NCBI GenBank assembly: GCA_002269645.1
Contig: NIVC01000694.1
Coordinates: 372,001-436,000, forward strand
Direction of reading: 5' to 3'
Length of the DNA stretch: 64,000 bases
DNA from: Macrostomum lignano
Taxonomy: Eukaryota
The notes beneath the pieces were generated by a model. The model was not told the DNA's origin. It saw nothing but the letters and a program-made list of their open reading frames with translations, and ran no database searches. The translations under genes were made by a program, and so were the position numbers. Positions 19,956 through 46,763 of the stretch are shown one piece after another. Numbering within the stretch: the stretch's first letter is position 1; each line of letters opens with the position of its first letter.

Positions 19956-20037
<82 letters not shown>
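19780..20037. repeat. (AGT)n microsatellite, interrupted
   Basis: Directly visible. Paralogue at 57576-58044. Confidence 0.97.
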
Positions 20038-22641: not shown

Positions 22642-23090
22642 TGTGTGCCGTGGGAGTTGATCGCAAATTTTCAATTTGAAAAGATTTTCAGTCGCGCAGG
22701 GGTCTCGTTTTTATAGTGATTTTGCGAGGTCTCTCATTGGCTCCGCCAGCCTGCAAGCAAGCAAGCAAGCAGGCAAGCAAGTCTGCCCAAACCCCAGCCC
22801 AGCCCCGCCAGCGAGTTAGTCAGTCTGACTCAACAACAGCAATCTATAGCTATCTGTTTTAATAATAAAATTTTCAAAGTCTCGGTTATTTTCAATTTCA
22901 AAACAAATGAAATAAGACCATTTTAATTCCAGAGATGTTATTTGTCAATTCCAGTTTATTCAAAAAGATGGTTTTCACATTATTAGAGTTGATATAACCA
23001 CAGAAACAGATTCCCACAAGTAAAAATTATACAATTGAGAGTTAATCAACATCAACAGCACTGAAAATGGCCTCGAAACACTCAGCTGCG

Positions 23091-23278
23091 CCGCGGGGCG
23101 GCTGCGGCAGCCTAGATGCGGCGGAAAAAAACAATTCAGGCCAGGCATGGGCTATAACTACGTGGTCATCGCTAACCGCGACAAGCGATGCCTCATCAGG
23201 GCGCTAGTGGTGGCCAAGGCTTTCGCGGACATGCAGGCCAAGGCCATTACTAAGCGGACTTGGCGAACGATAAAGGCC
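23091..23278 (+). pseudogene. Isolated diverged fragment of a pPolB N-terminal exon
   Basis: Homologous to 33393-33584 (RGGCGSLDAA...NYVVIAN.DKRCLIRALVVAKAFAD..AKAITK.TWRTIKA), with mostly synonymous differences. Confidence 0.8.
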
Positions 23279-23427
23279 ATGTCAAAGTTATTATACAAAC
23301 CATATATTCCCACAAAAGCAATGATTATACAACCCACACACATTACGAATATGAATATTCCCACACAAAAAGCAATGATTATACAGCCCACACAAAAGAG
23401 TTTTTTTAGAAATTGTCTTAATCATTT

Positions 23428-26400
23428 TCACTCGACACACATTGTGGGGAGCTGCTGCAGTTTGGCCTTGTCGCTGCTGTAGATTAGCTTAATTCGCTTG
23501 TTCTGCTCCTTGATCACAGCAGCCCAGGCAGCAAAGGCCGGCTCGTGGGGCCCAATCTGATGGGCCGGGGTCTTGAAAAGCTGTTCATCAGTCAGGCCGG
23601 CAGCCCAGCTCTCGAGTTCAGTCGAGTCCGGGGGATACGAGTGCCACCACTTGTAGCTGCTGCCGTCAATCGTTGAAAGCTTCTTCACCTGCGGCTGCAT
23701 TTCAATCGGTGGCGGGGTGTTGGCACTGCGGCGGCGGCTGCCCTCGCCGTCACCATCATTCTTCTTCTTCTTCTTCCGACACCCCACAACGCTGCCCTGG
23801 CAGCTGGGGGGAGGGCGCTCACAGGCGCCCCAACCTGCGCTGCGCAGGAGCAGGAGCACGTCCACTGGATGGTCAAGGATGTCTCCTGTTCGGAGTCTGG
23901 CGCGGAGCGCATCCCCGCGTGGGCATTGCCGCAGGATGTGGTCCTCCGTGTCCGGAAGTTCACAATCCCGGCACCGCGGGTCGTCGGTGATGCCAAGGCA
24001 GTGACGCGTGGCCTGTGCCAGGCTGGAGCATCCGGCCCGCAGTTGATTGATGGCCACCGCCTCGCTCCGGCTGAGATTGTTCGGGGGTCGCTTCCATGAT
24101 GGACCAACGAGTTGACGGTCCAGCGCAACGCGCGCTCTTCGGATTGCTGCTTTGGCCGCCTGAAGCGATATTGGCCCATTCTGTTGGTCATTATTTCTGG
24201 CGCTGTTGGCTAGCCTGTCGGCCCGCTCATTGCCGCCGATGCCGCAGTGCGCGGGCACCCAGACGAGTTCGCAGGTGCGACTGGACGCGGCCAGCAGGGC
24301 GAGCAGGTCCCAGCAGCTACGGCCATTGCCGGTGTCTTGCTGACCAGGACCGGCCTCGAGCGCACTCAGGGCTGACCGGGAGTCAGTATGGAGGCGAATA
24401 GTGGTGCCGTGACAAGCTGGCAGCTCATTGACGTATCTGAGGCCGGCTAGGATGGCCACCATTTCGGCCTGGAAGCTGCTGGCGATACGGCCGGCCGGGG
24501 CTGCGACGGTGCTGCACCAAAGGCGCGTGGTGGCCACAGCCGCGCCCAACGCGTTGTTGATACCACCACTGGCCGATCCATCGGTCCATAGCTCAATATT
24601 CACCGGCGCCATGGCCGCCAGTAGGTGCTGAGCCCGTTCCTTCTTAATGCTGGCGGGGAGCCATCGGTTGCAGGTCTCTCCCAACTCAAGGTGGAAGCTG
24701 ACGGCTCCTCCGCCGTCGGCGAGGATCATCCGGTTAACCCACGGCTGCACCAGATCCCTGGCCAAGTCATCGAGGCCGGGGCACAGTTCCTGGCTGAAGC
24801 GGCGCCAGCATCCATGGTGGGGCCGCTGGTACTCCACCTTCAGCAGGGCGCGGCCGCCTTTGGCGGGGTCCGTTTGCCTGGCGTTGGTGGCATCCTCCGC
24901 CTGCAGTCGCCTCTCGCTTTCAAAGGCTCGGTTGCGGAGGCGGGGCTCGCTCTGCCTCGAGGCCGAGGTTGTCGCCGGTATGTCTGGGGCGAGTCTGAGA
25001 ATACGTTCTCTGAGACAGGCGGCACGTTCCAGGGCTATGTTGTTGAAAGGTGGCAGGTCGGCGACGGCGAGGAGGCTGGTCACGCGAGTGGGTAGGAGAC
25101 AGCCCGTAATGATTCGGGCGCAGGCGTTCTGCTGCTGCTCAATCAGCATCTTGGTGCTCGGAGCAGCGCTGGCCGCCCAGATCCCACATCCGTACTCGGC
25201 CACAGCTCTGACCGTCGTCATATAGGCGGTCCTGCGCACGGTCTGCGACGCGCCGGCGCGTCTAGACGCCAGGTTGCCGAGCGCTCTCCGGCGCTGAGTC
25301 ATCCGACGACGCACAGAGTTCACATGGGGCAGAAACGTCAGCTGGTCGTCCAGGGTGAGCCCCAGGAAAGTCGGGTTTTTGCAGTAGCTGAGTGTCTCAC
25401 CAGCCAGGGTGAGGGAGACTGTGAGCTTGCCATTGACCTCCGCTGGTGATAGCGTGAATGTGGTGTAACAGCATTTGTTGGTGCTAAGCATCACTTTCCA
25501 TTCCTGGCACCAGGCCGCGACCGCGTCCAAGGCAGGCTGGAGCATGGCCCCACAACCTTTGAGGGTGCGGTGAGTGGCGAGGAGCGCCGAGTCGTCGGCA
25601 AAGAGGCTCGTGCCGCAGTCCGGTGCCGCTCTCGCGATGACTGTCGGGAGGTCATTCACATAGATGCACCAGAGCATAGGAGCTAGGACGGAGCCCTGCG
25701 GCAGGCCCTCGCCGAACGCGCGCAGCCGGCTGTAGGTGCCTTCGTAGCGAACGCATGCGTGCCGGTCTGAGAGGAAGGCGTGGGTCCAGGCAATGGCATG
25801 CGCGTCTATCTCAATACGATCCATTTTAACCGTAAGGCCGTCTCGCCAGACTTTGTCATAGGCCGCCTTGAAGTCCATCTGGGCCAGGATGCTTCGGTGC
25901 GGTGGCTGATGTTCGAGTCCGTCGAAAACATCCTGACAGACACGGGCTAATTGTTCCTCCGTGCTACGTCCTTTTCGGAAGCCAGCTTGCGTTGCACTTA
26001 GAAGGCCCTTGGATTCCAGATCGTAGGTAAGCCGTGCCAGGACCATGCGCTCAGCGCATTTCGCTATGCAACTGGTAAGCGACACCGGCCTGTACGACTC
26101 CGGGACAGACGCGTCCTTATTTTTCTTGAGGACAGGCACGATGATAGCCCTGCGCCAGGCGCGAGGGATTTGTTTGGTCCTCCACGTCCGGTTGATGAGG
26201 TCCAGGAGCCGCTGGTCGGTCTTGGGGGGCAGTCTCTTGAGCATGTCGTTGCAGACGCCGTCGGGCCCGGCAGCTTTTCGGCTTTTGAGTTTCTTAAGAG
26301 CCATGCGGAGCTCGCACATGGAGAACAAGGAAGGTGGTTGGTGGGCCTTCCTGCGTGCTTCAATGGCTTGGTTCCTGATAGCGCTGTCACTCTTTCGTCT

Positions 26401-28737
26401 TGGTACCCGCGACACGGCCGCGTACATTTGGCAGAAAACGACCGCTTTCTCCTTACGGGTCCTCGCCGGTCTCAGCTTAGCACCATTCTTGTCGCGTCTG
26501 ATGAGATCAACGTTGCCTCGGGCAGGCGCGGTGTCGCCACGGCTGGCTCGAAGAAGGCCAAACAGGTCGCTGTCCGCTGTAAGGTTGCTGGCGCGCTCTT
26601 CAAGAAAGCGCTGGCGCTCGCGTCTGATGGTGGCGCCGGCCTGGTGCCTTGCCCGGTTGTAGGCCGTCAGATTGGCAGTAGTCGGATCGTGTTCAGCGCG
26701 CTCTCTGGCCTCCACGCAGGCGGCTCTAGCCGAATCGCACTCGGCGTTCCAAAAGGGGGTGCGCCTGCAGGCGGGGCTACCTCTGGGGATGGCTATGGCT
26801 GCCGCCGCGAGGATGTCGGCGCAGAGAGCCTCATGTTCGATGTCAGCAGAGGGCCAGGCTTGAGGTCCTTGGATCGTTTCCAGGTGCGCCCTGAAGCAGC
26901 CCCAGTCAGCTTTACGGAAGCTCCAGCGAGTGCAGCCATGCTGGGGGGGGGGGCGTTTGTCGGCGGCGAGGGGGAATGAGATGGGCAGATGATCGCTGCC
27001 GATGTCTTTCTCAGTTCTCCAGCCATCGCTGATATAGTTCGCGAGCTGTCCGCCACTGATCGTGATGTCCGGCGCACTGCGCGAGCCAGTTGCTGGGCTA
27101 GTGCGCGTGTGCTGGCCATTGTTGCAGATATGGAGGCCTTTGTTGGAACACCATTCTTCAATGGCGTGGCCCCTCGCATCCTCTTCCATCCACCTGTCCC
27201 AGCAGCCGTGCGCGTTGAAGTCTCCTCCAAGCACCACATTGCCGCGAGACGGTAAGCTGTAGAAGTCAGGGGCCCAGGCTTCTTGGCGTTGCGAGCTAGT
27301 TGGGGGCGCGTAGACGTTGACAAGAGTGATGGAGGCCTGGCCCTTCGCGAAGATGGTGATGGACGCCGTATCAAGCTTATCGTCCAGTCTTTGGTGGTCT
27401 CGCTCTTCGCTATACCTGACGTCGGAGCGCACGAGGATGATCACTCCCCCCCTGCTGGTATGTTTTTTTTGCCTTTTTGGTTTTTTTCCCGGCTAGGGAG
27501 GTGGCGCTCCCGCACGCCGGGGCTCCCGTGTCTTCAGTGGGCCGCTCAGGTATGTTTGGCACAGCAGTTCCTGGTTCAGGCCAGGTTTTGTCTCGCTCGG
27601 TGCACGCGGAGCGGCGGCCCCGGCAGCCTGTGCACCACGTTTGGCGGTCTTCTGGGTATCTCTTGCGGCAGGTGGGTCGATGGATGCGGCGGTTGTCCGT
27701 GGCACGAGCCGTCGGGCCCCTGCTGCCACGGCCATTTTCATCAGTTTGAGAGGCCGCGGGGGCACCGCTAGCCCCGTCCGCCGCTGCCGCCGCAATGTCA
27801 GTTTCCTCTGGAGCGTATGGGATGCCGTCCGTCCGAGCAGCCACGCAGTAGCCGCTTGGAGGGTGGTACTCTTCGCCTTCCATGAGCTTAGTCTCCTGTA
27901 GCATGACGACCGCCGGGCGGTTTTTGGCGAGCCAGTTGGCCAGCTCCGTGGAGCGCGATTTCAGCCCGTTGACATTTAGCTGAAGTGCGCGGAGCTCTTG
28001 GTCCAGCTCTGCTTCTTCCTGCCCGCGGTGTCTGCCGCGGCGCTTGCGTCCCGCCCGGCGTTGCTTACGAGAGCCGGTCACGGTGGCGGCGCTGTTGCCG
28101 CCTCGCAGCCTTAGGATCCGCTCCAGGTTGCCGTCCTCTTTAACTGCGCAGGTTTGTCGGTAGGGGAAAACGTTAGTCACTCCTGGGGGGACTGCTTCGG
28201 TCTTCGGCAGTACGGACCCCAGGTCCAGGGGCACGACGTGGACGTCTTCTCCAAGCCCCCGTCACCATCATTGCTGTTGTTGCTGCTGTTGAACCACGAT
28301 GATGGCTCCGAAGCCGTCTTGGGCGGCGGCGGCGGCGGCGACTGCGAGGCAAACAGCGAATCAACGTCAGCATCCATCAGAGCAGTCCACAATTCAGGGG
28401 TGAACTTGATCGAATATTTCCAGCGCTCGCCCTCATCGTACCCAGCCGGGTTGATGCGATGCAGCCAAATCTGGCTGTTTTTCACTTCCAGAATCTTGCG
28501 GCCGCTCTCACCCAGTTGAAACCGCTTATGACGAGAGTCGAGGACCCGCAGAGACTCAATAATCGGCCACGCCCGCTTGAGATGCTGCCACTCAATGCGA
28601 GTCAGAAATACACCGGGGAAACCGTGCTTGTAGTTGCCGTTCTTGTCAGTGTAGAAACGCCGAATCTCAATCAGTTCTCGATCAGTATCGAATGTGGGCT
28701 TGCGCACCACATAATTGTCAACAAGTGGAATAGACAT
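23428..28737 (-). pseudogene. Tandem PC4-like ssDNA-binding protein (265 aa reconstructed), interrupted by a LINE
   Basis: LIEIRRFYTDKNGNYKHGFPGVFLTRIEWQHLK matches the PC4 core (LIDIREYW.D.EGEMKPG.KGISL..EQW..LK), followed by a second degenerate repeat. Removing LINE 23761-28258 and one TSD joins 28737-28259 to 23746-23428 in frame (NDGDG|EGSRRR). Confidence 0.75.
23761..28258 (-). mobile_element. Non-LTR retrotransposon, I/Ingi-like (APE-RT-RNase H-CCHC), single ORF with one frameshift
   Basis: APE (LQLNVNGL, LQETKL, GDFNAH, SDHLP), RT (QGSVLAP, FADD), RNase H (WTDGS, WVPAHCGI.GNERAD) and C-x2-C...H...C. (GAA)n tail and a 14-bp TSD CCGTCACCATCATT at 23747-23760 and 28259-28272. One +1 G in a G7 run near 27447. 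Confidence 0.93.
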
Positions 28738-28831
28738 TTTGACAGAGTTTCACGGAGATAGATAGAGCTGATGCTGAGGTGTCGGAGCGAGCGAGCGCGA
28801 GAGAATTCTGAAAAATCTCTCAGCAGCGTGG

Positions 28832-29119
28832 TCCTTTATATACCCGAGAAAGCGGCTTTACTCTGAGGAGGTGAGGCTGCGGTCTTCATTTTTCGTTCCT
28901 ACACCACTACCGGTTGGTTAGATGCACACACATCCAATTACAATCCATATGAGAACGAAAATAATGGGGTATTTTCAGACCCCATCTTTTCTATACCAAG
29001 TTGGGGTCTGAGTGTACAATTGTACACTAATTTGCAAATGCAGTACAGGGGAAAGAGAAATAATGCACACGCGCTCTCTGCTTTTGCAGCATCCCCTTCC
29101 TGCAGGGGTATATAAAGGA
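28832..29119. promoter_or_regulatory. Divergent promoter pair with identical GGGTATATAAAGGA TATA elements
   Basis: 28832-28845 (minus strand, upstream of PC4 ATG 28737) and 29106-29119 (plus strand, upstream of ATG 29201) are exact 14-bp inverted copies. Confidence 0.65.
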
Positions 29120-29284
29120 GATTGTAGGAGCATCACCAGTCACAGCCGCTTCCGCAGCATCAGCATCAGCCACAATCACACCAGCAGCAGCAGCAGAAGC
29201 ATGGCATCAAAACGTTCAGCCGCTGAAGCCGCCATTTCAGCCTTGTGGGGGCGAGCAGGCCCCTCACAACAATAGCAGCAGCAA

Positions 29285-32230
29285 AAAGCGGATTGGAAGA
29301 CCTGATGTCTATCTGCCGGGTCAACTGGGCCAGGAAATGGGACGACCTGCGGAGAACTGATGTTGGATCGCTTAGATGGAAACTGGCCACGACCCCTGTG
29401 AGACAAAGACTCAACAAGAAAGGATGGAGAGTTCAGGCGATGAGTATCCTTGAAGAGGCCCAAGCGATGGAAGTTAACAGGGAGCCGGGAGTGATGAACC
29501 CACCGCCCTGGAGTACTTGGAGGGAAACGGTGTTCAACTTAGCGGCGGGCAGATTTGAGTCAACGGAAGACGACCTACCCGGGTACGCAAAAAGTATCCG
29601 GACACTTGCATGTGTTGCAGAGAAGGACAGATAAATATGCACGTGTTGTACCCAAAATCAATGAATTTTCACATCGCAATTTAATGCAACAAATTGTCGT
29701 AGCTTGTTTTTCAGCAAAGTGGCCAATGCAACAGGTCGGTCTATTTTCACCTGGAAAGGTGATAATGGCTTAATTAAAGGTAGATGACGTAAATCGCGAA
29801 ATTTCAAGCTCGTGTTCGATTTAACAACGTAAAAACGAATTTTTTCTAAAATGCGAACAAGAGAAACGTAACGCGGGCAGTGAGCAACAAAAGTGAAACT
29901 TAATTTAAAGAAGCGGTCGCTTTTTCTAACAGAGTTCAAGATCGTCAGACTTCCTCGAATCAATCACCTGGCCCACTTGCTGAAATGTGCTGCTCAAATG
30001 GTTCCAACAAGCGGCTCTGCATGCCAGACTCGATTTAATCCACGATTGGAGAACCTCCTTGGGCAATCACCTTCTCAAGACGACCACGAAACGCTTTGCA
30101 GCATCTCACCAGATATTCCGGAGTCAGCTCTGATTCCCAAGCCTCATGAATGGCAGATCTCAGCGAGTCCAGGGACGTGTGGAAGCTTCTGCAGGCCCGC
30201 TTGTCAACCTGGTTCCAGATCGAAAATCCAGGGGATTTAGATCCGGTGAGTAGGCTGGCCAGTCCTCCTTCAGCCAGACGCGCTTGCGCCCGAAGTGAGC
30301 GCTGAGCCAGGCCTGCACGTCATTGCGAGTGTGTGCTGGAGCCGAGTCCTGCTGGAAGCGAGAGTTCCAGCCATCTGCAAAACTGCCATCCGGCCGCACC
30401 CTGTCAGGATAGTTACTGCGAATCCAGTGCAGCACTTTCTGGAGCACATCAAGGTACCCGTCTCCATTCAGTCGGTACCCCTTGTCAAAAAATATTGGCT
30501 GCATTTTCTTGCCATCAAAAGCGACGAGGCCGAAGACCATGATGGTTGCCGGGTGCTTCATCTGTGGCGAGTTGAAGGCGTCCCGCTCCTCACTGCTCCT
30601 GGCCAGCACGCGCGAAGAGCTGTGATTCCGGTAGGGTGTCTGCGTGAAGTTCTTTTCATCCGTGAAGAAGATGACTTCAACTCCGGGAGAGGTCTTGAGG
30701 TCATTCAGGAGCCTCCGTGACCGTTGAACCCGAAGCCCCAGCTGATCCGCGTTCAGCATGGGGATCTCCCTCTGCACGAAGCTCCTGACGCCCATCTCCC
30801 GAAATGCATTGCGGACATTGCTCTCATGCACTCCTTCCTCTCGGGCAATTTGCCTCATCGTCTTCGTTGGGTCTTCTGCCCGCTTGGCTTCGAGGTTGGC
30901 CATGAAGTCTGGTGTCCGGACTGTCCGCGGCCGTCCCGATTTCTCCTTCGGTTCCAGGCTGTCGCCAGAATCCAGCAGCTTCTTCCAATCACCGACGGTG
31001 CTCTTCCCTACTGATTACTTCTCAGCACACATTCGCACGCTCATTCCAGAAGTCAAGTCGGTAGCGACACGCTTCTTGAGATCCAAGGAATAGCTTGCCA
31101 TTTTGTGACAACTTGGGGTGGCAAATCCGCGGATTGAAAACGAAGCTTTCGAAATAAAAGGATGAACAGCATGAGTCCATTTTGCATATCAGGGTTAAAA
31201 TTCCAGGCAGAAGTTGGGCCATAGACATATTATACAAATGATGCTTTAAATTCTCGGAGTATGTCAAACTCTCGGAAAGCAAAGCCAACAAGATTTTGTC
31301 CGGATACCTTTTGCGCAAAAAAGCGTAAAGGTAATTCTCGCAAAGGACATCGAAGAGAAAGCTACCCTTGATGCTGATGTGGTTCTCTACACTGACGGTT
31401 CCGTTAGAATTGACAAATTCGGGGGCGGGGGCGTCCTGGTCAAATGGAGCAAAGGGCCAGACACGGAAGAAAAACACATGGTGCCAGCTGGGAAGTGGTG
31501 TTCCTCGTGCACGGCGGAGCTGACGGCGCTGGAAGAGGCCTGCAGCTGGCTCTGCAGGCAGGAAAGAAGCTGGCAGAAGGCGGCTATACTCACTGACAGC
31601 GCGAGCGCCCTGAAGGGTATTTTTGGAAACAGCAAACACCCGCGCGCAGGTGAGATCAGATGGAAGCTGGAAGCGCTGAAGGAGAGAGGTAAGATTGTCG
31701 AGCTTGCCTGGATCCCAGCGCACTGCGGGCTGCCAGGAAATGAGGAGGCTGACAAAGCGGCTGCGGCAGCCTGCGAGGAGGACCAGCAAGAGGCGAGGGT
31801 GGACAAGAACGCTGTGCGGCAGGCGATCAAGGCGGCAGAAGCAGAGAGAGCTAAAAAAGCTGGATGGGCGCACCCGCGCTGCGAAAAGACCTACAGCGGC
31901 AACCGAACTACCATTAAGAAGACCACCTTTGAAAGCAGAGGAGACGCCACCAGCTTCAGGAGAGCTAGAACTGGCCACTCGCTCGAACTGGCGGGCTACC
32001 AAAAAAGACTGGGCAAAGAAACGGACGGCATCTGTAGAGGCTGCGGGCTTGAGGAGGAAAGCATCGAGCATGTCAGTGACTGCCCAGCCACCTACTGGAA
32101 AAGACAGGAGTTCGGCATCCAGACTCTTGGTGACTGGTGGACGGAGGAGAAGGCGGCGCACGCCTTCTGGAAGTGGTGGAAGAGGAATGGCATAGGCACA
32201 GCTTGATCCGGCAACAACAACAACAACAAC
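29285..32230 (+). mobile_element. 5'-truncated non-LTR retrotransposon (post-RT region plus RNase H plus CCHC), split by a Tc1/mariner
   Basis: ...NPPPWSTW... at 29.5 kb continues after the transposon into VVLYTDGS, AELTAL, ILTDS, WIPAHCGLPGNEEAD and CRGC...EHVSDC. (CAA)n tail after stop 32206. Confidence 0.85.
29586..31315 (-). mobile_element. Tc1/mariner (maT-like DDxD) transposon, decayed
   Basis: ~19-bp TIRs CGCAAAAAGTATCCGGACA / TGTCCGGATACCTTTTGCG flanked by TA and CA. Transposase 31101-30035 has FTDEK, QQDSAPAH and WPAYSPDLNPLDF, one stop (~31017) and one frameshift (~30220). Confidence 0.88.
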
Positions 32231-32385
32231 AGCAGCAGCAGCAGCAGCAGCAGCAACAGCAACAACAGCATCAGCCTCCGGCCGCAAAGAGGGGACGCCC
32301 GCTAGGTGAGTCTCTGCGTGTGTAAAACTATGCTTTTAGCATTTGCAAAATCTGAATTCAGAAAAATAGGGCTGTATAATTGCTT

Positions 32386-32850
32386 CAGCATTTGTGTGAT
32401 TTGCAAATTTTTTCGCTAGTTGAAATATGGGCTTTCTTTGAAACCACTGCTTTCCATCTTTAGCATTCATTATGGCTTAAAATTTCTGTAATTGCTTTTC
32501 AGCTTTAGCATTTGTGTGATTTGCAAACTTCACGCTTGTTGAAATATGGGCTTTCTTTGAAACCACTGCTTTCCATCTTTAGTATTCATTATGGCTTAAA
32601 ATTTCTGTAATTGCTTTTCAGCTTTAGCATTTGTGTGATTTGCAAACTTCACGCTTGTTGAAATATGGGCTTTCTTTGAAACCACTGCTTTCCATCTTTA
32701 GCATTCATTATGGCTTAAAATTTCTGTAATTGCTTTTCAGCTTTAGCATTTGTGTGATTTGCAAACTTCACGCTTGTTGAAATATGGGCTTTCTTTGAAA
32801 CCACTGCTTTTCATCTTTAGCATTCATTTTGGCTTAAAATTTCTGAATTT
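32386..32850 (+). repeat. 119-bp tandem repeat (~4 copies) in the first pPolB intron
   Basis: GCATTTGTGTGATT recurs at 32388, 32508, 32627 and 32746. Confidence 0.9.
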
Positions 32851-35800
32851 CCTCTTGACATAGATGTTGAAGTAAAGGGAGGAAACTGGAAACAGGAAAC
32901 TGAATTTACTGGAACTGGTTATTTCTGTACTCTGCGCGGACCTACACACCAATGATTTTGTTACGGCCAAGCTGACTGCCGATAATATGCTACTCACTAT
33001 TAACGTGCCGCCCGTCCGCCGCAGCCGCTTCACAGCAGAGTTGGTATTTAAACATACGCTCGTATCAACAAGGTTCTGCAGTCGGACTCCAGTGTCTTGG
33101 GCAACAACTACCTCTTCCTGCCTAGGTTGTTTTTGAACCAAATCACAAAGGAACGTTACTGACGAAACAATTAAGAATGTAGAATGCAAAGCCTATAATT
33201 GTCAGAAAACAAGAAAACCTAGAATACTCATGGTAAGCAGTGCTTACCATATCCGGCAAGAACGGATACTACCAATTTAGCCATAGAATTTAATTTACTC
33301 TGGTCGGCAGAAAGTTGAGTTGGGCCATGGTAAGCACTGCTTACCATCAGTCTTCTCGTGGTTTTAAATTGTTTTTGCTCAAGGCCTGGGTCCCGCGGGG
33401 CGGCTGTGGCAGCCTAGATGCGGCGGAGCGCCACATCCAGGCACGCCATTCAATGGGGCGCAACTACGTGGTCATCGCCAACAGCGATAAGCGGTGCCTC
33501 ATCCGGGCGCTGGTGGTGGCCAAGGCCTTTGCCGATCTGGAGGCCAAGGCCATCACCAAGCAGACTTGGCGGACCATCAAAGCCGACTCCCCACTGCAGA
33601 CGAAGCTGACTGGGGAACTACAAATTGCCGCCAATCCGTATTCGGTGAGTAAAAATTATCTTGCACATTTTAATTTGCATTTTTATTAATATACAAATGT
33701 TATAGTCTTTATCAACCATTGCACAGGACGGGCCTTTCGGGGTTGACGTGCTCCCCCAACTGCTCGCGGTCCTGAACGCCCAGTCGCCAGGCCGGGATTT
33801 CGGCGTTCGTGTGTACAGCGCGGAGGAGGGCAATACATGTGTGTACACCCTGCCTGGCAGCACAGTGCTCAATCTACACCTAATTGGCGAGCACTTTAAC
33901 GCGGTGTGCAAGGTGCCGCCATTTTTCGGTGCCCGTTACTATTGTGACCGCTGCCAGCAGCCGTACGACTGCAACTCTGCAGGGCACAAGTGCGCCAACA
34001 CCTGCCCTCAATGCAAAGTGCCCGGCGCCAATTGCAAGAGCCTGCGGTGCGACTACAAACGATGCCCAGACTGCGGATTGAAATGTTACAATCCGCAGTG
34101 TTTTGAGAACCACCGCCAGAAAAACCGGGCCGGCAGGTCTCGCTGTAGCTCCACCCGCGTCTGCCCCAAATGCGGGTATTTGGAGGAGTTAAAAGCCGGC
34201 CAGAAGGAGCCGGATCACAAGTGTGGGCATGTCAAGTGCCCACTGTGTAAACAGTATGACGAGGCCGGCTCGCATTTGTGCTTCGTCAAGGCTCCCAAAG
34301 TGAAAGCATCGACTATGCCGTACGTGTTCTACGATACGGAAACATACACGGATGATGAGAAGCAGCATCACGTGCACCTGGTGACTGCCGTCACGTGCTG
34401 CGAGACCTGCTCCGGCCGGGCATTTCCACGCGAGACTTGCAGCCTCTGCAATGGCCTGCATAGCACTGCCAACTGTCTGACTGGCCGCGATCTGGGGGAG
34501 GAATTCTCCAATTGCGTCAGCCACTCAGACTGCGCCTGCCAAATGGCTGACTTTGTGGCTGTGGGCTCGGCCTCGCTGAATCCTTTTTTCGCCTGGCTAA
34601 GCACCACATTCCGAGGCGGCGCCATTGTTGTCGCGCATAATGCATCAGGCTATGATGCGTTTCTACTGCTTGGCGCTCTGCTCAACGGCCTGGCCAAGAA
34701 GCGGCCCCAAGTGTTGTTCCAGGGCAGCCGGCTAATGAGCATGACGGTTGACAAATTGGTGTTTAAAGATTCTCTAAACTTTATACCAATCCCGCTTGCG
34801 CAATTCCCTAAAGCTCTGGGGCTCGAGGACACAAAGCTGGCCAAGGGGACCTTTCCCCACCAGTTCAACAAGCCGGCTCATTGGAACTACGTTGGCCCCT
34901 ACCCGACTATTGATTATTATGGCGGCAAGGCAAACAAGGACTACGGCTCCATCTGTGCTTGGCTGGCCTCGTGACAGGGCGAGTTGTTCAACTTTAATCA
35001 GGAATATCTCGATTATTGTTTGAGCGACACGGTGCTGCTTCGCGAGGGCTGCATCAAGTACAGGGCAATAATTGGTGAAATTTGCGACGGCCTGGAACCG
35101 TTTGTACAGGCCAATACGATTGCCAGTTTGGCAATGGCTGTTTTCACCACCCGGTTTATGGAGCCCAACTCGGTCGGCGTGATTGCCCGGCAGGCTGACC
35201 AGCAGCCGTTCAAGGCGCGCAAGTGGCTGGCCTATTTGAATGCCACCGAATTTGGCGGGCGACTGCGCACCTGCGACTCGACTGACGGCGGCGAGGCTGT
35301 CATTCTCGGCCGCAAGGTGGACGGCTTCGATGAGGCTAGCAACACTGTTTTGCAGTTTCATGGCTGTTTCTACCATGGCTGCGAGCAGTGTATGCCCGAT
35401 CAGGATGCTGTCCACCCACTCAAGCGGCAGCCTCTGAGCCATATAAGCCACGAGACTGAGTGGTTCACTCGCGAGTTGGAGCGGCACAATTACAGTGTTC
35501 GTGTCATTTGGGAGCACGAATACACTGTATTGGCAACGCAGGCAGATTTTATCGCCGCAACTGCCCATCTGCGCGCTCCGCTCAAGATGGAGGATGCGCT
35601 CTACGGCGGCCGCGTAGAGTGTTTTATCCCGCATGCTGTGGCCAGCGAGACTGAGACTCTCAAAATCGGGATGTGGTGAGTAGTGATACTACTAATGTAG
35701 TAGAATATTTTGCAAAAAATACAGTTTATGAAAAATAATGCTTTATTTCAACTGGCAAGTCTCTCTGTACCCGACGGTGCAGTCGAAAGACCCGTACCCG

Positions 35801-37313
35801 ATTGGCCACCCGGTGAACCACCCGACGCCGCAAGTGCTCGATTCTGACGCGCTGGCCAGCTACTTTGGCATTGCCAAAGTGACAGTGCTGCCGCCGTCAA
35901 ACTTGCATATTCCGCTGCTGCCCTACAGGGTGCAAAAGAAGCTCTTTTTTGGGCTTTGCCGCACCTGTATGGAGCAGCAGCAGCAGTGCAGCGGTTGCCA
36001 CCACTCATACGAGGAACGGGCGCTGACTGGCACCTGGGCCATGCCGGAGCTGCGAAAGGCGTTCCAGTTGGGCTACCGGCTGCAGGTGGTGCACGCGCTG
36101 GCCTACTGGACAGAGCAGCGGACCGGCCTGTTCAGTGACTACGTCGGCGCCTTCCTCAAATTGAAGGCCGAGTCGAGCGGCTCCCCCGGCATGTCGGATG
36201 AAGACAAGGCCGCCTACATTGCCGATTTTTACGCAAAGGAGGGCCTCACGCTGGACAAGGTCGAGCCCAACCCAGGACTTCGCTTTGTAGCGAAAATCTT
36301 TTTGAATTCGTAAGTATTCATAAATTGTTTTTTAAACGATTTCTTCTACTAAAAGTAACCAATCTTTTCACAACACAGGCTCTGGGGCAAATTTTGTCAG
36401 CGTGATGACCTCACATCGACCGAAATTGTGTCCAGTTACGAGGACTGGCTCGCCCGGCTGACCGACCCCAACCTCAAATTCAAGGCCTGCGAACCGATTG
36501 GCAGCGAGTTTATGCTGCTGGAGTACCGGCACCGCTACTTTAATCAGCGGCCTTTCCGCTACTCCAACGTGCCAATCGGTGTTTTTACAACCACGCAGGC
36601 CCGGCTGTGCCTGTACGAGGCATTGGAGGGGCTCGGCGAACGGGCCATTTACTGCGACACTGACTCGTAAGTATTGCTCTTACATGTAAATAGTTAGCAT
36701 GTGGAACTAATTATCTCGTTTTTCTCTCTCCCCCACACAGGGTCGTTTACCGGCATTCCGAGGGCCAATGGGAGCCGCCCCATGGCACAAGCCTCGGAAT
36801 GTGGACCGACGAAGTGCCTGCAGGCAGCCGGATGACCGACTTTGTAAGTGGGGGGCCCAAGCTCTACACTTACATTGTCGAGGATGCGGCCGGTGTCCGG
36901 AGCCAGGTCTTGAAATGCAAGGGCATTCGCCTGACTCCGGAGATACGGGAGCGCGGCGACGACCTGCGCAACGCCCTGCTACACGGCGGCTCTCTGCAGC
37001 TGCCGCAGTTTCAGTTCAGGCGCGACAAGGCGTCTTGCACCATCCATACAATCAATATGGACAAGACGTTTCAGCGCGTCCTGACGAAACGTGTGTACGG
37101 GGCCTGCAGCCGGCCTTATGGCTATAAATAATGTGGTCCTTGCGACTAACTAATAAATGTCTTGTTAAATTTGACTGAGTAAAATCTATTTATTGTTGTA
37201 CATATTTTGCATGTGTTGTACTCGCGACTCCCAGGACGGGGCACCTACGAGGGTCCGAGTACGCGGGCCCGTGCTGGCCTGCGTCAGGGCGCGAGTGTCC
37301 GCACGGGACCCTA

Positions 37314-37544
<231 letters not shown>

Positions 37545-38320
37545 TTACTTTGCTGGCAGTTGTTGCTCCGGGCTCAGGAAGAAGGCCTTTACTTTGTATT
37601 TTTCTTTATTCAACGAGGGGACTTGTATAGCTTGGGCTGTTTACTGGCTGTAGATATAGCTCCGTTGTAGAACCACGTGCCGAGGGGGCAGTCGAGGCGC
37701 GCACCGCTCCAACCCGCCGCGAGCGATGTTAAATAGCACACGCCCGCGGAGGGGGGGGAGGGCCACGTGCTCTCAACACCACCACCCCACCAACCCCCCA
37801 GCCAACCCCTCCCCCCCGGGGGACGGCCACCAAGCCCGCCGCCGGCTCAGCCAATCACTACGCGACTGGCTGGCCGCGGCCAATCGCCACGCAGGGCGAG
37901 CAAAACCTGCCAAGGCTAAAGCCTCTGACGCACAAAAAAGGGGGGAAAACAAACTGCCAACACCTAATTGAGGGCTGACTCAGCCCGCCGGGCTAGGTGC
38001 ATTGGCACCGCAAAAGTGCACAACACAACACATGTTAAATTAGTGAAGAGTTACAGACTACTATACAAATGTACATAAAGCATTTTTGTATTGTATGCGG
38101 CGAAATTGCCAATGTAAAAATCTATTGTACATATTTTGCGTGTCAAACTTGTTTAAAATCATTTATGAAGAGAAAATTATTGAAAAACAATGTAAAATTT
38201 TCTGTATATTCTATTTGCTTGTAATGTTGTACATAAATTATTTCCTGTAATATGCTACTGATTTAATGTAAATATATCTTCTTTGAAAATAGTTTATATA
38301 CGATGTGAGCTGTACAATTA

Positions 38321-38716
38321 GTTGACTCATTTGGATGAGATTGTACAACTGTACATGTAGTAGGGTTTCGAGTTGTAATCTTGGTGCGCGTGCGCGGGCC
38401 GTCTGGGGATTAATTAATGTATGCCACTGTACATGTAGAAGTGGATTAATGCACATGTATGTACGAGCTCGTACTGCGTATAGAATTGGGGATAGACATG
38501 GACAATTGAGATAGATAGGGATTAATGTACATGGAATTAATGTACATATATGAGTACATGGATTAATGTACATATACGACTACATATTGCCATGTATATA
38601 ACGCTTAATTAGCGTTTTTATATACTACTTACTTCATTTTTCAGATAGTAGTATAATTTGCGTTTTTAGCGTCAAATCTGCCTAAAAATCAACACTTATC
38701 TACGCATTACGTAGTA
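38321..38716 (-). repeat. Right terminal inverted repeat (~396 bp)
   Basis: Ends ...CACTTATCTACGCATTACGTAGTA. It is the reverse complement of 20297-20675 with substitutions and small indels. Confidence 0.9.
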
Positions 38717-39091
38717 GGACTTACTAAGCATTACGGGAAATATCATTCAGCAACATCGAAAAGTCGCAACCACATAAGATTCCGTCGCCTGTGGTCGCCA
38801 CTTTTGAGAGTGCAGGTAAAGTCTCTCAATCTTTGCGAGTATCGCAACTCAGCTACGCCGCGGCAGACTTGAGTTGAGGAATGAAGTTGGGGAGCGATGT
38901 GCGAAGGTTGGACGGATTAAAGCTACCCCGATCAGTTTTCTCGTGTCTTTTATTTCAGAATAGTCCAAGAGAAATTATTGCTCACTGGCGCATAGAGTGG
39001 TGACTGAGTGGAGTGCTGAGTGTAAACTCGGGCTCTTCGCCTACGGGCACAATGCACTGCGGGCAAATCTGGGCGGGCAGTTCGTCTGCGG

Positions 39092-39440
39092 TCAACGGCG
39101 CAGAAGTTGGGGTCAACGGCGTAGGAGGCGAGGTCAACGGCGTAGGAGACGAGGTCAACGGCGCTGAAGGCGAGGTCAACAGCGCAGAAGGCGAGGTCAA
39201 CGGCACAGAAGGCGAGGTCAACAGCGCAGAAGGCGAGGTCAACAGCGCAGAAGGCGAGGTCAACGGCGCAGAAGGCGAGGTCAGCAGCGCAGAAGGCGAG
39301 TTCAACGGCGCAGAAGGCGAGGTCAACGGCGCAGGAGGCGAGTTCAACGGCGCAGGAGACGGGGTCAACGGCGCAGGAGATGGGGTCAACGGCGCAAGAG
39401 ATGGGGTCAACGGCGCAGGAGATGGGGTCAACGGCGTAGG
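39092..39440. repeat. 21-bp minisatellite (VNGAEGE-type units), paralogue of 8736-8970
   Basis: About 16 tandem 21-nt units. Confidence 0.9.
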
Positions 39441-41024
39441 AGGCTGCAGATCTTCCGGTGATGAGGCGACTTTTGATTCAGCATCGCAGCGAGTTCCCCT
39501 CTGGCATGGCACCCAGCGTTTTGCGGTAGGACAGCCCGGATCTGCCAGCTGAACGCGGGACTGCCATGCAGATGCCGCTGGTCTGCGCGCACGATTTGCA
39601 GCCCCGCTGCCGAGTGTCCTGAAAATGAAGTGAGGAGGCGGAATCGCAGCTACACAACATGTACATGCGAAAGGATGTCAAAAGCACACATTCTGTCTGA
39701 TCAAATGACTTGTATACATGATTTATTGAAAATTTCACGCTACAAGTGCGCAGTTTTGCCTGGTCTGGCCTGGTTCTGTTTGTTTCGAGTTGGGAGGTCT
39801 GGCCTGTCCCGGCTTGGTTGTGTTGCTTTTTTTGTCTTTTGTTGAGTCGGGGCTGACGTTTCTCTGTGGCCCAAACACATTATTATTGTTATTAACCAGA
39901 TACCAGACCAGATATTAGTATTATTATTATTATTATTATAAGCTCAGAGGCGCTACTTAATCACAGCAGAGAGCTTAGCACAAGTGACCACCTGTGGTAA
40001 CTGCCTACAAGGTACGGTGTTACGTAAGCCTATTCAGCTCCAACATGTGCTGTCCCACTAGGTCCATTTTTTAGCAGTTTAAGTAATTAAAATGAAAAAG
40101 AGTGTGCGGTATCTACAATCCTGCACGCTGTTTTGAGTGAGAACCTGCTCAGCATTGCTTGTGATAGAGATATACGAGTAGAGATACTGACAGTTGCTGC
40201 TGACTCGTGTTTTGCTTTCAATTAATTGCAATTGAACCGAAAGCGTATCAAAAAGCACGCTCTCTTTCTACCATCTTTACGACAGTAGATACTACGAAGT
40301 AATTTCTGTTGCCTGATATACGAAGACATTGTGGATGCAGCCTGACTGTGCCGTTTACCAGTCTTAATAACAATTATTTCACTTTACAACTTTATAGTTT
40401 AGAGACGTGTTCAGTTTTTTGTGCGTTTATAGTTTAGCGTGTGTACCTGTACAGATTTGAGGAGTGTGTGCATATACAGGGTTGAGTGTGTACGTGTACA
40501 GGGTTGACTGTGTACACGTACACATCCGGAAGCTGCATCAGCATCTACGAGCCGAGGCGAGGAAAGCGTAATGCTTCATTCCGTATGACTGGAGGCGATG
40601 GCGCAGAAAGGAGCACTGGAGCCATCACGTCCTCTTTTCTGATTGCTTTCCTGAGAAGCTCTGCGCATCAGCCTTGACCAAAATCAGAGATCTCAACGGA
40701 TTAGTTGCCTCTACCACTCCCAGTCCCTGTTGCGCCCCTTCACCAGAACCCACTATCAAAGCGCGCTCCCCAGGTTCTAGGCGCTCCCGCTACACAAGAA
40801 CCAGCATCGACCTGCAAGGAAGTTGCCGATATAGTCGCCGTCGAGATGTTCAACGGTTTCGTGTGATCCCGTTTTATAGGATGTCGGACTGCAAACAACG
40901 ACAGGCTCCGTAGCAGCTCTGAGACTTTGCGCCCGATTAAGCAGCAGCCGGACTCGGCTGTAAAATTTAGAAGGCGCCGAGACCTCTCTGAAACAGTTTC
41001 CTAACTTTACAAATCCGACATGCC

Positions 41025-41620
41025 GTGAACATATGGAAACACATCTGTTATTTATTTCAGGGCAGCAATCAAAGTCTGCTTGTGGCGGCTGCTGCTGTGG
41101 CATCCGCTGCGTCCGCGGTTTCCGCTGCATGGGCCTTGGCGGAAATTCGCGCAGACCGGGCCGAAAATCGCGCCGATCGAGCCGAGAATCGCGCCGCCTT
41201 GGCCGAGAATCGCACCGGCCTGGCCGCCATTTTAGATGAGCTGCGGGCGATGCGCGGCGAAATGCGGGCAATGCGCGACGAAATGCGAGCGATGCGCGGC
41301 GAAATTCTGGACCGCATTGATATGGTACGTGCTTTGATATGGCCGAGAATCGCGTGACCTTGGGTACCATTCTAATGCGGTACGAAGACGACATGCGGGC
41401 GAGTCGAGATGATGCCTTAGTCGCATATCCTAAATGATAAGCAGGCCGACCAAGCCGAGAATCGCGCAGCCTTGGCCGCCATCCAAAATGAGATGCAGGC
41501 CGACCGGGCCGAGAATCGCGCAGCCTTGGCCACCATCCAAAATGAGATGCGGGCGATGCACCATGAAATGCGGGCGATGCGCGGCGATATTCTAAACATG
41601 TATTATACGGCATAATAATA
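41025..41620 (+). pseudogene. Coiled-coil repeat family, copy 3 (rearranged)
   Basis: Same 36-nt intron (41025-41060) and SNQSLLVAAAA start. The repeat region is shortened and broken by a stop at 41355 and by rearranged pieces. Confidence 0.6.
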
Positions 41621-44600
41621 CATACGGCATGTATTAATATGCTACATGCTCAAAGGTTACGCAGGAGGCGCAGAGTCGCCCGCGCTGCATGATGCCGTGT
41701 CACGGCTGTGGAAGCAGCTCAGGAGAGAACTTGCTGAAGGCCAAGTGCAGGTGAGAATCGCACAAGGTCAGCTGCTGCTAGTGCAAATGGCTTCATCTGT
41801 CTCTTGGCGTGTTCAAGAGCCCGAATGTGTAATATGTCATATTATAATGTGCATTATGTACTACATGACCGCCCTATCCACCGCCGTTAGTTTTATTAAT
41901 ACAGTTTACTCGTATAATAATATTACAAAGCGAGTTCAAGCATCTAGAATTTTATTAATCAGGATTTTTTTAAATTGCACTGCTAGCCGCAATTAATTTG
42001 GAGCTGCTATTCCATCATTATGCCTGCCTGCGGCATGCCGCGCCAGTAGGTGCAGCAACCACGGCAGCTACAGGCTTTTCAGAAGGCGCTGAGACCCCCA
42101 TACAGCATGTAGTGCATCAGTGTTATTGAAATAGACTGGCTGTGCATCATTTACTATATTAACGTGTTTGCGTGCGTGTGCATGTGCAGGTTTGCCCTCG
42201 GAGCTGCTGTGGAATCAATACGCCTACCAGGGGCTTGCTGAGGACCATTCTCGGCGATGGTTTTACATTCGCCGAGCAAGAAGGTTGGCCAAGTATTCGG
42301 TCGAATTCATCCATTCTTGGACGGAGACTTCTCGATCACCATGCAATCCACCACACCTACAGTGGAATTGTCGATCCTGCCAGCGTTGTCTGGATGGACG
42401 AGCTGGGTCCCCCCAAGGTGTTGACTCTCGCCAGGAAGACCCGAACATGGACCAGGTTCTATAATTCCAAGTCCCGGTTGCGCCCCTTCACCAGAACAAA
42501 TTATCAAAGCGCGCTTCCCAGGTTGCCTTTGTCTTTATCTTTGGAGCTCTCAGCTTTTTTGCTACAAGAACCGGCATCGACCTGCAAGTGCGACGAAGTT
42601 GGCGATACAGTCGCCGAGACCTTTAACGGTTTAGTTGCGTGATCGTGTTTTGACGGATTTCGACCCGTAAGTTTAGTTTATTCTGACCGCACAAAATCGA
42701 AGCTCAATAGAGACGTAGCGCTCGATGGAGCTGGACTCTTGCAGGCTGCCTCAGCAGGTTCCTATTTCTTGCTGACGAGAGCTTTGGGACCGAGTCAGCG
42801 GCAGAGAAGTCCCGCTGCTCCCGCCGCAGCTAAATCTTGAACCAGTCCATTTGTGGACTGCCTGCTGTGTGACTCGGCATACGATCAGACTGGCTGTTGT
42901 GACTTTGAACTCTGCAAGCATGTGTCTGCAGCAATCTCTTTACTCCATTGTTCAGCGTGAGCCCTGTGGTTGATAGGTTAATGAACTCATGTCTTCCCAA
43001 AGTAGCTTGTAGGTAGGCTAGCCAGAAAATTTTAGGAGTCTCCGTTAGAGTGCAAAAGAATAAGAAATGCTAGGTCTCCATCCTTCGCTTCGTGCACCTA
43101 ACCCCGCACGCTTGACTACTGTGAGTAGATAGTATCGCAAGTCTTTTTAGGGCTGTCGTAATGCTGGATGTGCCCGATAAAGCACTGCAGACTAAGCCAA
43201 CTAATTGAATCATGTTACAATGTCAGAGTTTTTTTCAAAAATTATTAAAAATAATATATAGTATGTCTATTATTATTTAAGTTAATGATCACTATTTGAT
43301 GAAAGTTATGATGAGGCATAATGGTAGCAAAGTGCAAAGCAAAAAAGTCCGCTGCAGTTTTCCTAGATGCAGAGGCAGCCTTTGATACCGCCTGACATGA
43401 CAAGCTCACTGAGGACAAGCTTACTGACAAGCTTACTGACATGTAGCTCAGACACTGCATGCTCACTGATGGCTTTCTATCAATGCTCATGCTCACCCGA
43501 ATTCTGTCAGAGTCAGACTATCTGAGAGATAGACAGATTCAGGCTCGGGTCCAGGTTCGGCATCCTGAGCCCTCTCCTGCACCTCTTCTACGCCAGCTCA
43601 ATGCCGACTCCCGACAATCCGAGCGTCAAGCGCAGTTAATTCGCAGACGACACGGCCGTCTGGGCCTCAGCTGACACCTTTGTAGGGCTCCGAACATTCC
43701 TTTCAGAGCTATCTCAGACGTTTCAGACCATCAGACTGAATGCTGGGAAGAGCAAAGCAATCGCTTTCAACTACAAACCCACCAGGCGCATGGACTTGCG
43801 ACCCAAACAATATCTGGGAGACGGACGGAGGTTCCGTACAGCCAGGAGATAAAATTTGCCCAAGCCTCTGTCTGAGCAAACAACGCAAGACACCATACCA
43901 TGACAGATACCAGCAGAGCCATTGTAATGCCGCTATGCAGAATTGTTAAAATGACAAAGCTGAGTAATGCTCACTACCCTCAGAATGGTGTACACAGCCT
44001 ACGGAGAAAACATCAGATCAAACTGCAAGGGGGATTCCCAATCCAAGGTAGGCTGACGGGCAGTCTCCCTGAAAACTGAGCATGCTGCCTGAGCCAGAGA
44101 TCGGTTGATCAGCAAAAGGGACCGGATTCCATGACCTGTGATCTCCCTGCGCACTTTTAAACTCTTTGTAAGAGTCTTACAAATATTGCTTAAAACTTTT
44201 TACACCCCTTCTATACTACTTATACAGTTGTATTCAAATATGCGGTATTGCATTTCATTTCATATTTTACTTATTAGCGTATTTTTTACTCTTCATTACC
44301 TTTTTATAAGAATCCCTTCTTTGTGCAGATTTCCCTGTTCCCTTCTATCCCTTCCATATTTTTATTCCCAAATGTGTGCGAAATTACTGCTGCTAAGTAC
44401 TGAAGAATACTTTTACTTAATTTAATTTCATGTTTTTCGATTAAATAAAAAATTAAATAAGCAGCAGAGCTCCTCAGAACTGATCCACGCCGGTTTTTAT
44501 GGCACTTCGTTTTAACAAAGTTTTTATCAGGCAATTTAGGGTGTCTTTTCTGGAGATTTCTGCTCATCAGCCAGTGGCCAAACTAAAGTCCGGACACGCC

Positions 44601-45514
44601 AGCCGCAATTTTTAGAAATTATGTTTGAAAATGAACAATGAAATTTTGGGAATTTGGCTTATCACGTGTAAATGTTCTTGGTCTAAACGAGCGCCATTTA
44701 AATGAAATGAATGTTCGCAACAGAACTCACCATTTTCCTGCAGGAACAGCCAGCCAGGTAATTGGATTCCCGAGCACTCCAGGTTTGGTGATTTTGTCCG
44801 ACTTGTCGAATCGATCTTGCACGCTGACTCAGCATTTTAGAATTTACATTGTAGTTTGTGGTGCCACATTGAATAATCCGTTCCAGAACACATAGTATGC
44901 AAAACGGCGTTTCCGATACTAGACTAGAAATCACAGTCAGAGCCGGGGCCCTCCCAACCGCCCTCCTTATGGTAAGCAGTTGATTATCTCAAAGATACAG
45001 AATAGGGGGCAGGCGGCAATGTACTCATCATACTAGCGTACATTCCAGAGATAAGCACGAGGTCGCTTCACAGCGGCTACCGCAGAGGGGGTGTGGAAAT
45101 GAGAGAAAAATCGATATTTCATTTTATTTAAGATAAGCAGGTCGCACACCGCGCACACAGCTAGAGAGACACCGAAAGTTAACACTTGAACAGCTTTTAT
45201 GAATCTGACCAATCACGAGAGGCGGCAGTTGTAAAAGCTAAGGGATTCATTTAAAAAATATATTATGGGCTATACACGAGGGTTAACTACTAAACGTTAT
45301 ATTTGATAATTTGAGTTTACATATGTACTTCGACTTACTAGTAAAAGTAAAATGTAATGAATAATTCATGTGCAACCGGAGCCAGTAGAAAGTATAATGA
45401 ATCAGCAGTCTTATAGTAGTGCGTAAACTTAATATTTTTAATGATTATTTTTATATGAAACAGCAGGTGCAGCCCAAGTGCTCTTCTTCCGAGATGTCGT
45501 CTCCTCTCTTCAGC

Positions 45515-46305
45515 TCATCTGAAGCTATACAGCACTGACTGCAGCGCTTGAATGTCTTCCTCCAGCCGTACGATTATGCATGTGGCCTTGTCGAGAATGT
45601 ACTTTAGTTCATGTCCCATAACAGACAACTTCTGCAGCGAACTCGCATGTCCGCGACTTGCTGTCGTGTTGCATTTGCGTCCCTGATTGCTGTCGCCATG
45701 GATAAACTGCCGGCAGAGCTTGCGACAGCGGCGGCGGCAATTAGGGCAGCTCCTCCAGTTAGTAAACTAAGGGTTGCGATCCCGACACCGGTAGTAGCCA
45801 GGCCGACAGCTCCAGCCGCTCCCTGTGTCCTTGTTCTGCGCTCTTGCCGCTCCAGCTCCTCCGCCTTTTGTGTGAGCCTCTCGTCGAGCACTTCTACGAT
45901 CCGACGAGAATTATTCAGTCTATCAGTGAAACTACTGAGCCGCTTGCAGCACTCCCTGAGGCTTCCTACTGTATGCTGGATTATTTGACGGAATTCTTCT
46001 GTGGCTTCATGGGTATGCACTTGAGCAGCAAAATACTTCCTAGCAGAATTAATCAAGCTTTCTACTTCTAAATGACGATGCCACAGATTCAGATCGCATG
46101 CAATGTCGCGCATCTTCTGCAGTCCCTGTCTCAGTTCCTGCTTCATCTCCTCGGAGAGCACCTCATCATTCAGCTGTATTTCCTGTACCTGTGTGACCAG
46201 CCGAATAACCATCTCAGTAAGCCAGCAAAGCTCTTTTTTCAGGTGTTGTAGAGACTTGAACATGCTGAAAATGTCCGGCAGGTGAGGAGGAGAAGGCCTA
46301 TCCAT
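45515..46305 (-). pseudogene. APOL/alpha-PFT-like family, A-type with a 3' frameshift
   Basis: MDRPSP...LTQKAEELERQERRTRTQGAAGAVGLATTGVGIATLSLLTGGAALIAAAA... A 1-nt deletion near 45631 separates it from the conserved ...RLEEDIQALQSVLYSFR* end. Confidence 0.65.
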
Positions 46306-46763
46306 GGTTTGAATCTCGTTGCGCAAATGCGCTTTGTTAATTTGTGATGGCTCGAATAAACTGAATATCCAAAGTTGTAACTCGAGTGTATAGTTGAGAA
46401 AGAAATATTCGTCCAGCAAATTGTCTGTGCAGCCGATAGACGAGCGTTTTTGAAGTGAGAAAGCATTGGCGGCACAGTTTAGCAACAGCTTGGCCTGAGT
46501 GTGCTCACATAAACTGAACTTCCACTTTGCTTCAGCTGTACAAATTCATTGCAGGGTTGCGAGTTACAGCAGGCTACTCCACTGTACGCAGTGTGTTCTG
46601 AACTTCTCCCTGTCTGTGTTCGTTTCACGTTCATTTTGTTTATTTGTTCGAGTTTCACACCGGCGGCAAACTGCACGGAGTGAGGTGCAGTTACTGTCAA
46701 CGATGTCTCACTAGTTTCTATTGTATGGGAAAGATGCAGACCAGGGTATCGTATACAAGATTG

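Follow-up and report, generated by a model that had tools for sequence, protein, structure and literature searches.

Introns in the protein-primed DNA polymerase gene of a reduced Polinton-like element of Macrostomum lignano

Can the polymerase gene of a virus-like mobile element be split by introns that its host has to remove? The question is raised by a stretch of 64,000 nt of Macrostomum lignano DNA (assembly GCA_002269645.1, contig NIVC01000694.1, positions 372,001 to 436,000; the window below), in which a gene for a protein-primed DNA polymerase is interrupted by short AT-rich segments, three of them inside the catalytic motifs A, B and C. An initial annotation read these segments as spliceosomal introns that already belonged to a Polinton-type element before it inserted here. 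The literature describes the genes of intact vertebrate Mavericks as intronless (PMC8097293). In a nematode Maverick, the core genes are intronless and the cargo bears introns (10.1101/2022.07.12.499685), and endogenous viruses are, according to one survey, free of introns (PMC10120064). A gene modeller also scores large insertions in degraded Maverick copies as ‘introns’ (PMC8097293). The element in the window (20298-38715), flanked by identical 6-mers that form a target site duplication (TSD), is a decayed copy of a mobile element of ~9-10 kb, with an intron-split protein-primed DNA polymerase and no detected integrase or capsid gene. Such elements probably copy themselves with their own polymerase and integrate through the integrase of complete Polintons.

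Introns of the polymerase gene

Four short introns are found where the initial annotation had placed them, at 33645-33726 (82 nt, 24% GC, phase 0), 35676-35758 (motif A, 83 nt, 27% GC, phase 0), 36310-36378 (motif B, 69 nt, 26% GC, phase 2) and 36667-36740 (motif C, 74 nt, 38% GC, phase 2). Their donors are GTGAGT or GTAAGT, and the neighbouring exons have 56-60% GC. The exons, aligned with an X at each junction, are colinear with their homologues: against 12 outside polymerases, the motif B junction adds no residue in any, the motif C junction is exact in eight and off by 1-2 residues in four, and the motif A junction has 0-4 extra residues in 10. A DNA search of the same genome (67 matches from 40 scored of 188 candidates) provided 20 loci, two pairs of which may each be one insertion assembled twice. 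Motif A, B and C introns are present in 20/20 of these loci and the upstream intron in the 19/19 that cover it; no sister lacking the segments was seen. The motif A acceptor is non-canonical in two loci only, the window and L019, and a canonical AG in the other 18.

A second family (69% protein identity, ~40 close copies by protein search of the same genome) carries introns at the identical four positions and phases in 5/5 copies, with different intron sequences. It also has a matching leader exon, a 45-nt mini-exon and a short intron. Over 21 copies and four introns, 82/84 donors are GTRAGT and 83/84 acceptors are YAG, and intron lengths range from 67 to 258 nt. Insertions and deletions amount to 18 per kb in introns versus 1.9 per kb in exons of family 1 (~10-fold) and to 33 versus 0 in family 2. 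The branch-point motif YTRAY is irregularly present in the four copies checked. Group I introns are known from cryptophyte elements (PMC12220804); here self-splicing introns were ruled out, since Rfam models of groups I and II gave no match at E ≤ 0.1 over 32200-38800.

Splicing is seen in contigs from four sequencing runs (X1, X5, X6 and X12), aligned to the sister copy L049 at 85% likeness. Runs X1, X5 and X6 come from three studies and are RNA by guess; X12 is unlabelled and probably DNA. Contigs from each of the three studies skip exactly 81 and 77 nt with GT-AG borders, and these skips match the motif C and motif B introns, respectively, to the single base; neither occurs among the joints listed for X12. 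Two contig ends fit splicing indirectly: one X6 contig breaks off at the donor of the motif A intron, where 173 of its letters are left over, and another ends two bases before the upstream acceptor, with 100 left over. An X5 contig enters the upstream intron by five bases. Some junctions are already spliced in automatic gene models. Of the junctions for which the annotation had proposed a check by RNA reads, those of the motif B and C introns are spanned by such contigs; the other introns do not figure among the joints listed, and neither missing coverage nor unlisted joints count here as evidence.

The annotation had further placed a 558-nt intron at 32306-32863. Its donor holds, as it is shared by the sisters, but its acceptor does not, because the region around 32863 is intronic in the sisters and the true acceptor has been lost from the window copy. 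Nine sisters with a parsable 5′ region have a long intron, a predicted 51-nt mini-exon, an intron of 69-79 nt and then the next exon. The predicted acceptor of their intron 1 lies ~1 kb downstream of the shared donor and precedes the mini-exon. By this comparison, the native gene would have six introns.

The remaining question is to which DNA the introns belong. The element in the window has terminal inverted repeats (TIRs) of 92% identity over 398 nt, a 6-bp TSD and an empty homologous site with a single 6-mer at 61218-61223, which confirms the three features named in the annotation. Copies that share the introns and have different TSDs, which the annotation suggested looking for, exist: 10 of 11 sister elements have their own. 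Distinct TSDs, the same intron positions in family 2 and splicing at two junctions assign the introns to the mobile element and date them before its insertion in the window.

Small elements and complete Polintons

Eleven family-1 elements of the 188 candidates and four family-2 elements of ~40 were read end to end. The TSDs of family 1, 6 bp in 10/11, are each different; six elements measure 9.5-9.7 kb, one 10.4 kb, and four are longer through insertions. In family 2, the four elements measure 8.8-9.5 kb and have their own TSDs in 4/4 with ends read. Both families end in 5′-ACTAC ... GTAGT-3′. Between the left end and the start of the polymerase lie 2.2-4.2 kb, in which no Met-started frame is longer than 137-336 codons, depending on the element. 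A PC4-like gene stands head-to-head with the polymerase in family 2 and in some family-1 copies. Left arms vary by subfamily, with PC4 in the window and in C1263 and absent from most family-1 copies read, which suggests an exchange of arms between subfamilies. Two family-2 copies (C307 and C1713; L093:9383-10000 and its neighbour) have a left-arm frame of ~330 codons that has no Pfam match and, for a 205-aa part, only atlas matches below 0.9. Clusters of nested and inverted copies of both families at C157:54000-116000, C471 and C513 are possible insertion hot spots or piRNA-cluster-like regions. A candidate third intron-bearing family at C211 consists of decayed fragments only.

The polymerase is under purifying selection. 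PF03175, the protein-primed family B polymerase, matches three exon pieces, with motifs colinear with those of homologues. The median ratio of non-synonymous to synonymous substitutions (dN/dS) is 0.12 in family 1 (91/120 pairs usable), 0.07 in family 2 (10 pairs) and 0.11 across families (20 pairs, dS ~2.5). Four of nine family-1 copies are unbroken over all five downstream long exons. The other genes expected of a Polinton were not found. In tblastn searches (E ≤ 0.05) of 14 small elements with 10 core proteins of two complete families and a Gypsy integrase, only PC4 matched; for a third complete family, 11/12 frames had no match. The integrase, capsid, penton, ATPase and protease of the three complete families thus have no match in the 14 elements, in searches that recovered cross-family homologues at 24-27% identity as a control.

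Complete Polintons are abundant in the same genome. There are 73 capsid matches and at least 121 and at least 117 matches to two integrases, and many complete Polintons have open integrase frames; first-look candidates for the two integrases number 1565 and 2603. A search for the ATPase family PF04665 gave 0 matches and is insensitive, because ATPase-like frames exist in the genome. Polymerases of complete Polintons have frames of up to 1478 codons with no introns seen; a candidate intron in the canonical C1293 polymerase proved to be a gap due to two frameshifts. A decayed element at C234, with the same polymerase type, a capsid and an integrase, has no interruption at motif A, B or C. Among 16 metagenome relatives, no introns are evident; in six, a single open frame contains both motif A and motif C, and nine, re-examined, look decayed. 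Introns are therefore confined to the reduced lineage among what was examined. Proteins with up to 98% identity in databases carry the label Macrostomum lignano, and outside relatives share 30-37% identity. In a quick tree of 34 sequences, built on a single exon, families 1 and 2 group together, next to an Exaiptasia protein, P0040, P0044 and P0048 (support 0.985). In a complete-type family of ~12.1 kb, a frame resembling TATA-binding protein (L131:4522-4998; PF00352, E 2.6e-16) occurs together with a PC4-like gene, which makes two transcription-factor folds in one element.

Where do the small elements stand among known systems? With Polintons/Mavericks (adintovirus-like, pPolB2-type) they share the PF03175 polymerase, the TIRs, the 6-bp TSD and a VSR-like insert, such as has been described in a pPolB2-type polymerase (PMC10748475). 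TIRs and 6-bp TSDs are present in family 1, family 2 and the window, whereas the AG...CT end motif, an encoded integrase, virion genes and intronless core genes are features not seen in the small elements. They measure 9-10 kb against 12.7-24.6 kb, have no detected integrase, capsid, ATPase or protease, end in ACTAC...GTAGT and have introns in the polymerase, unlike the core genes reported for Mavericks. Since the definition of Polintons includes an element-encoded retroviral-like integrase (PMC5499653), the mini-element is a Polinton-like replicon that falls outside Polinton/Maverick membership on integrase and virion genes. Of the annotated ‘lineage of spliceosome-dependent virus-like elements’, the nativeness of the introns to a mobile lineage holds; as no integrase or virion genes were found, the lineage falls short of a full virus-like Polinton and is a reduced form of it.

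Reduced forms have been reported: nine Polintons without major capsid protein also lack protease and ATPase (PMC4028283), and 10 loci in C. elegans have pPolB1 and TIRs without integrase (10.1101/2024.01.15.575659). In the descriptions cited, they are not presented as spliced or as independent mobile families; here there are two families with fresh TSDs and purifying selection, in which no integrase was found. Introns inside polinton-like elements are also known from dinoflagellate polinton-like viruses (PMC12166617), where they are young, mobile introners in full-length viruses, whereas the present ones are old, conserved in position and divergent in sequence. A spliced Polinton polymerase or this reduced form was not described in the literature searched, Repbase and supplementary files excepted, and PMC8502044, 10.1101/2025.02.07.637071 and 10.64898/2026.10.13.758929 add nothing on either. 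Within that scope, an intron-rich pPolB group already on record, a possibility raised with the annotation, did not come to light. What is likely new is the spliced, polymerase-retaining and probably integrase-borrowing mini-element. Mavericks are screened for as intronless core genes plus integrase, so that such elements would be scored as dead fragments, though these families are transcribed, spliced, under selection and inserted at many sites. As introns occur within one genome in the reduced lineage only, a link between loss of the virion stage and gain of introns becomes testable.

Copying, integration and rival readings

The life cycle that best accounts for these observations begins with a polymerase transcript that the host would splice before translation, as an obligatory processing step. 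Excised linear DNA would then be copied from the TIRs by the element's own protein-primed polymerase. Such copying has been proposed for Mavericks, which have TIRs of a few hundred bp and a 6-bp TSD (PMC8097293). Integration would take place in trans, by the integrase of co-resident complete Polintons, and the introns would have been gained once the lineage had turned into a nuclear satellite with vertical inheritance. Non-autonomous transposons and satellite elements rely on an insertion enzyme in trans. The small elements would resemble MITE-like (miniature inverted-repeat) transposons in this need, but they keep a selected replicative polymerase and so would copy autonomously, depending on others for insertion only.

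Two observations fit copying from the TIRs by the polymerase: in family 1, TIR identity is higher within copies (0.93) than between copies (0.84), and palindromic derivatives exist. Further TIR pairs lie outside the polymerase list, on ~13 contigs, and three of the four read are non-coding palindromes with TSDs. None of the four is a gene-bearing partner; they are palindromes or insertion-filled copies. C903, C3637 and C362 (L123-L125) are near-complete palindromes with arms of 2.6-4.6 kb that are 99.9% identical, family-1 ends, 6-bp TSDs and short frames only; they resemble snap-back defective genomes. C362 sits in a tandem array and its repeat reaches into the flank, so that an assembly artefact is possible there. 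Because palindromic, apparently non-coding derivatives have the same ends and their own TSDs, the ends move without an integrase in cis. A palindrome of 3.9 kb at L130:1-3861, 66-70% like the family-2 TIR and with a centre flanked by CA repeats, adjoins a complete Polinton at its left end; genome-wide, there are 103 candidates.

Several points weigh against a self-copying element that borrows a Polinton integrase. The main gap in integration in trans is a mismatch of end motifs: the three complete families with ends read start with 5′-AGTAG and the small elements with 5′-ACTAC, and no matching helper was found. There is some chance that the left arm of 2-4 kb hides an integrase that is highly divergent or spliced into many pieces. 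The sample read end to end is limited. Given the guessed RNA label and the 85% likeness to a sister, the evidence of splicing concerns the family, not the window copy, and it shows two introns only among the joints listed.

It is tempting to go further and to see here a distinct satellite class, but we propose this tentatively. As mini-Polintons with a polymerase only, the elements would replicate in the form of linear DNA, exploit the integrase and perhaps the capsids of complete Polintons in the same genome and give rise to snap-back palindromic defectives, and the introns in all three catalytic motifs would act as a host-spliceosome checkpoint on replication.

A related idea, which we regard as unlikely, is that replication is gated by regulated splicing of the introns in motifs A, B and C, for instance in the germline only. 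P elements are known for such germline-only splicing. Ranked by conservation (40 homologues, pairwise profiles), the 11-residue windows that hold the three introns are among the top 1.5%, 0.2% and 3.9%, respectively, whereas the two upstream intron positions tested lie outside such windows. This clustering (Fisher p 0.002 for five introns, ~0.001 for 3 of 6) favours a gate, as spliceosomal introns generally have no such preference for conserved sites (PMC2814812), but the test is post hoc. The initial annotation had held that any retention destroys an active-site motif. This is borne out for the motif B and C introns, retention of which introduces stops in 21/21 copies. It fails for the motif A intron, which has no in-frame stop in 15/16 family-1 copies and a length that is a multiple of three in 11/16, so that its retention often means an in-frame insertion. 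Family 2 does not show this stop-free, multiple-of-three pattern; therefore, there is no conserved outcome of retention. Spliced forms are moreover present in all three RNA-like studies. The introns are thus most simply an obligatory processing step and not a regulated switch. Neither role suggested with the annotation, evasion of silencing or a splicing switch, gains support from any test made here. Their clustering in catalytic motifs is unexplained and could be compared across hosts.

Insertion without a Polinton integrase, by another transposase, by the element's own VSR-like nuclease insert or by host repair, has a still smaller chance of being right. It would account for ends unlike those of the three complete families read, among which no matching helper was found. 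However, Mavericks are marked by just such a precise TSD of 6 bp at unrelated targets, and one of their families, in a fish, has ends of the AC type (both PMC8097293); ends were read for three complete families, and several others are present in the genome.

It is very improbable that the segments arose as private insertions or as mobile introners, or that duplication spread a domesticated host gene. Dinoflagellates offer a precedent for introners that invade polinton-like elements (PMC12166617), but the present positions persist across families at dS ~2.5 with different intron sequences, Rfam gave no match, the TSD differs from element to element and there is an empty site; these readings are ruled out by the shared positions together with the distinct TSDs. 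Least probable of all is a bipartite Polinton of which the small element is one segment and a PC4-integrase-capsid element at C106 the other: the latter has PC4 too, no polymerase in its first 8.1 kb and no match to two polymerase queries, but it is ruled out by its 12.1 kb size, its AGTAGT ends and its relatives (C114, C1196, C754, C201 and C2466), in which a polymerase of their own occupies long open frames at 4-9 kb from the integrase.

The decayed copy in the window

The mini-element of the window lies between TSDs at 20292-20297 and 38716-38721, with the same 6-mer in both flanks and once at the empty paralogous site (61181-61625, forward strand, 82-86% identical to both flanks). The left TIR (20298-20675, forward strand) starts with 5′-ACTACG, a terminus found in 11 sisters, and the right TIR (38321-38715, reverse strand), delimited by TIR comparison, ends with CGTAGT-3′. 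The left arm (20676-23427) has no recognised gene, is 80-84% identical to that of C1263 and holds a duplicated piece of a polymerase exon (23091-23278; 77-84% versus the polymerase gene of the sisters). The PC4-like gene (23428-28740, reverse strand; PF02229, E 4e-6), head-to-head with the polymerase, is interrupted by a long interspersed nuclear element (~23761-28258) with endonuclease, reverse transcriptase and RNase H domains, on both sides of which the sequence is contiguous in C1263.

All parts of the polymerase gene are on the forward strand. Its predicted leader exon (29201-32305), a phase-1 exon of 127-160 nt in nine uninterrupted sisters, is split by ~3 kb of other mobile DNA recognised by Pfam matches, with a DDE/HTH transposase-like frame (30163-31014) and an RNase H fragment (31250-32203). 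By comparison with the sisters, 32306-32890 belongs to intron 1 as its 5′ part and contains three repeats of 119 bp, and the true acceptor of this intron, the mini-exon and the next short intron are gone. A damaged remainder of the next exon (32918-33644) is 77-81% identical to the sisters over 32918-33109 and 90-92% from 33363. The DNA at ~33110-33362 between these parts is unrelated to the sisters; a 30-bp inverted repeat at 33221-33356 within it is possibly part of a small inserted element. After the predicted intron at 33645-33726, the exon 33727-35675 (PF03175) encodes a Cys-rich region, the exonuclease and the insert that we take to be VSR-like from homologue names and its motif. It contains one stop and a 1-nt frameshift and has 1949 nt instead of the 1950 of open-frame sisters. 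The exon from motif A to motif B (35759-36309) matches PF03175 with E 2.6e-11, the exon from motif B to motif C (36379-36666) is open in 15/16 family-1 copies, and the last exon (36741-37131) has 129 codons up to the stop. Outside the element, a segmental duplication relates 8735-20037 of the window to 39199-57834 at 85-97% identity, and its second copy contains a Gypsy pol frame at 47035-50970.

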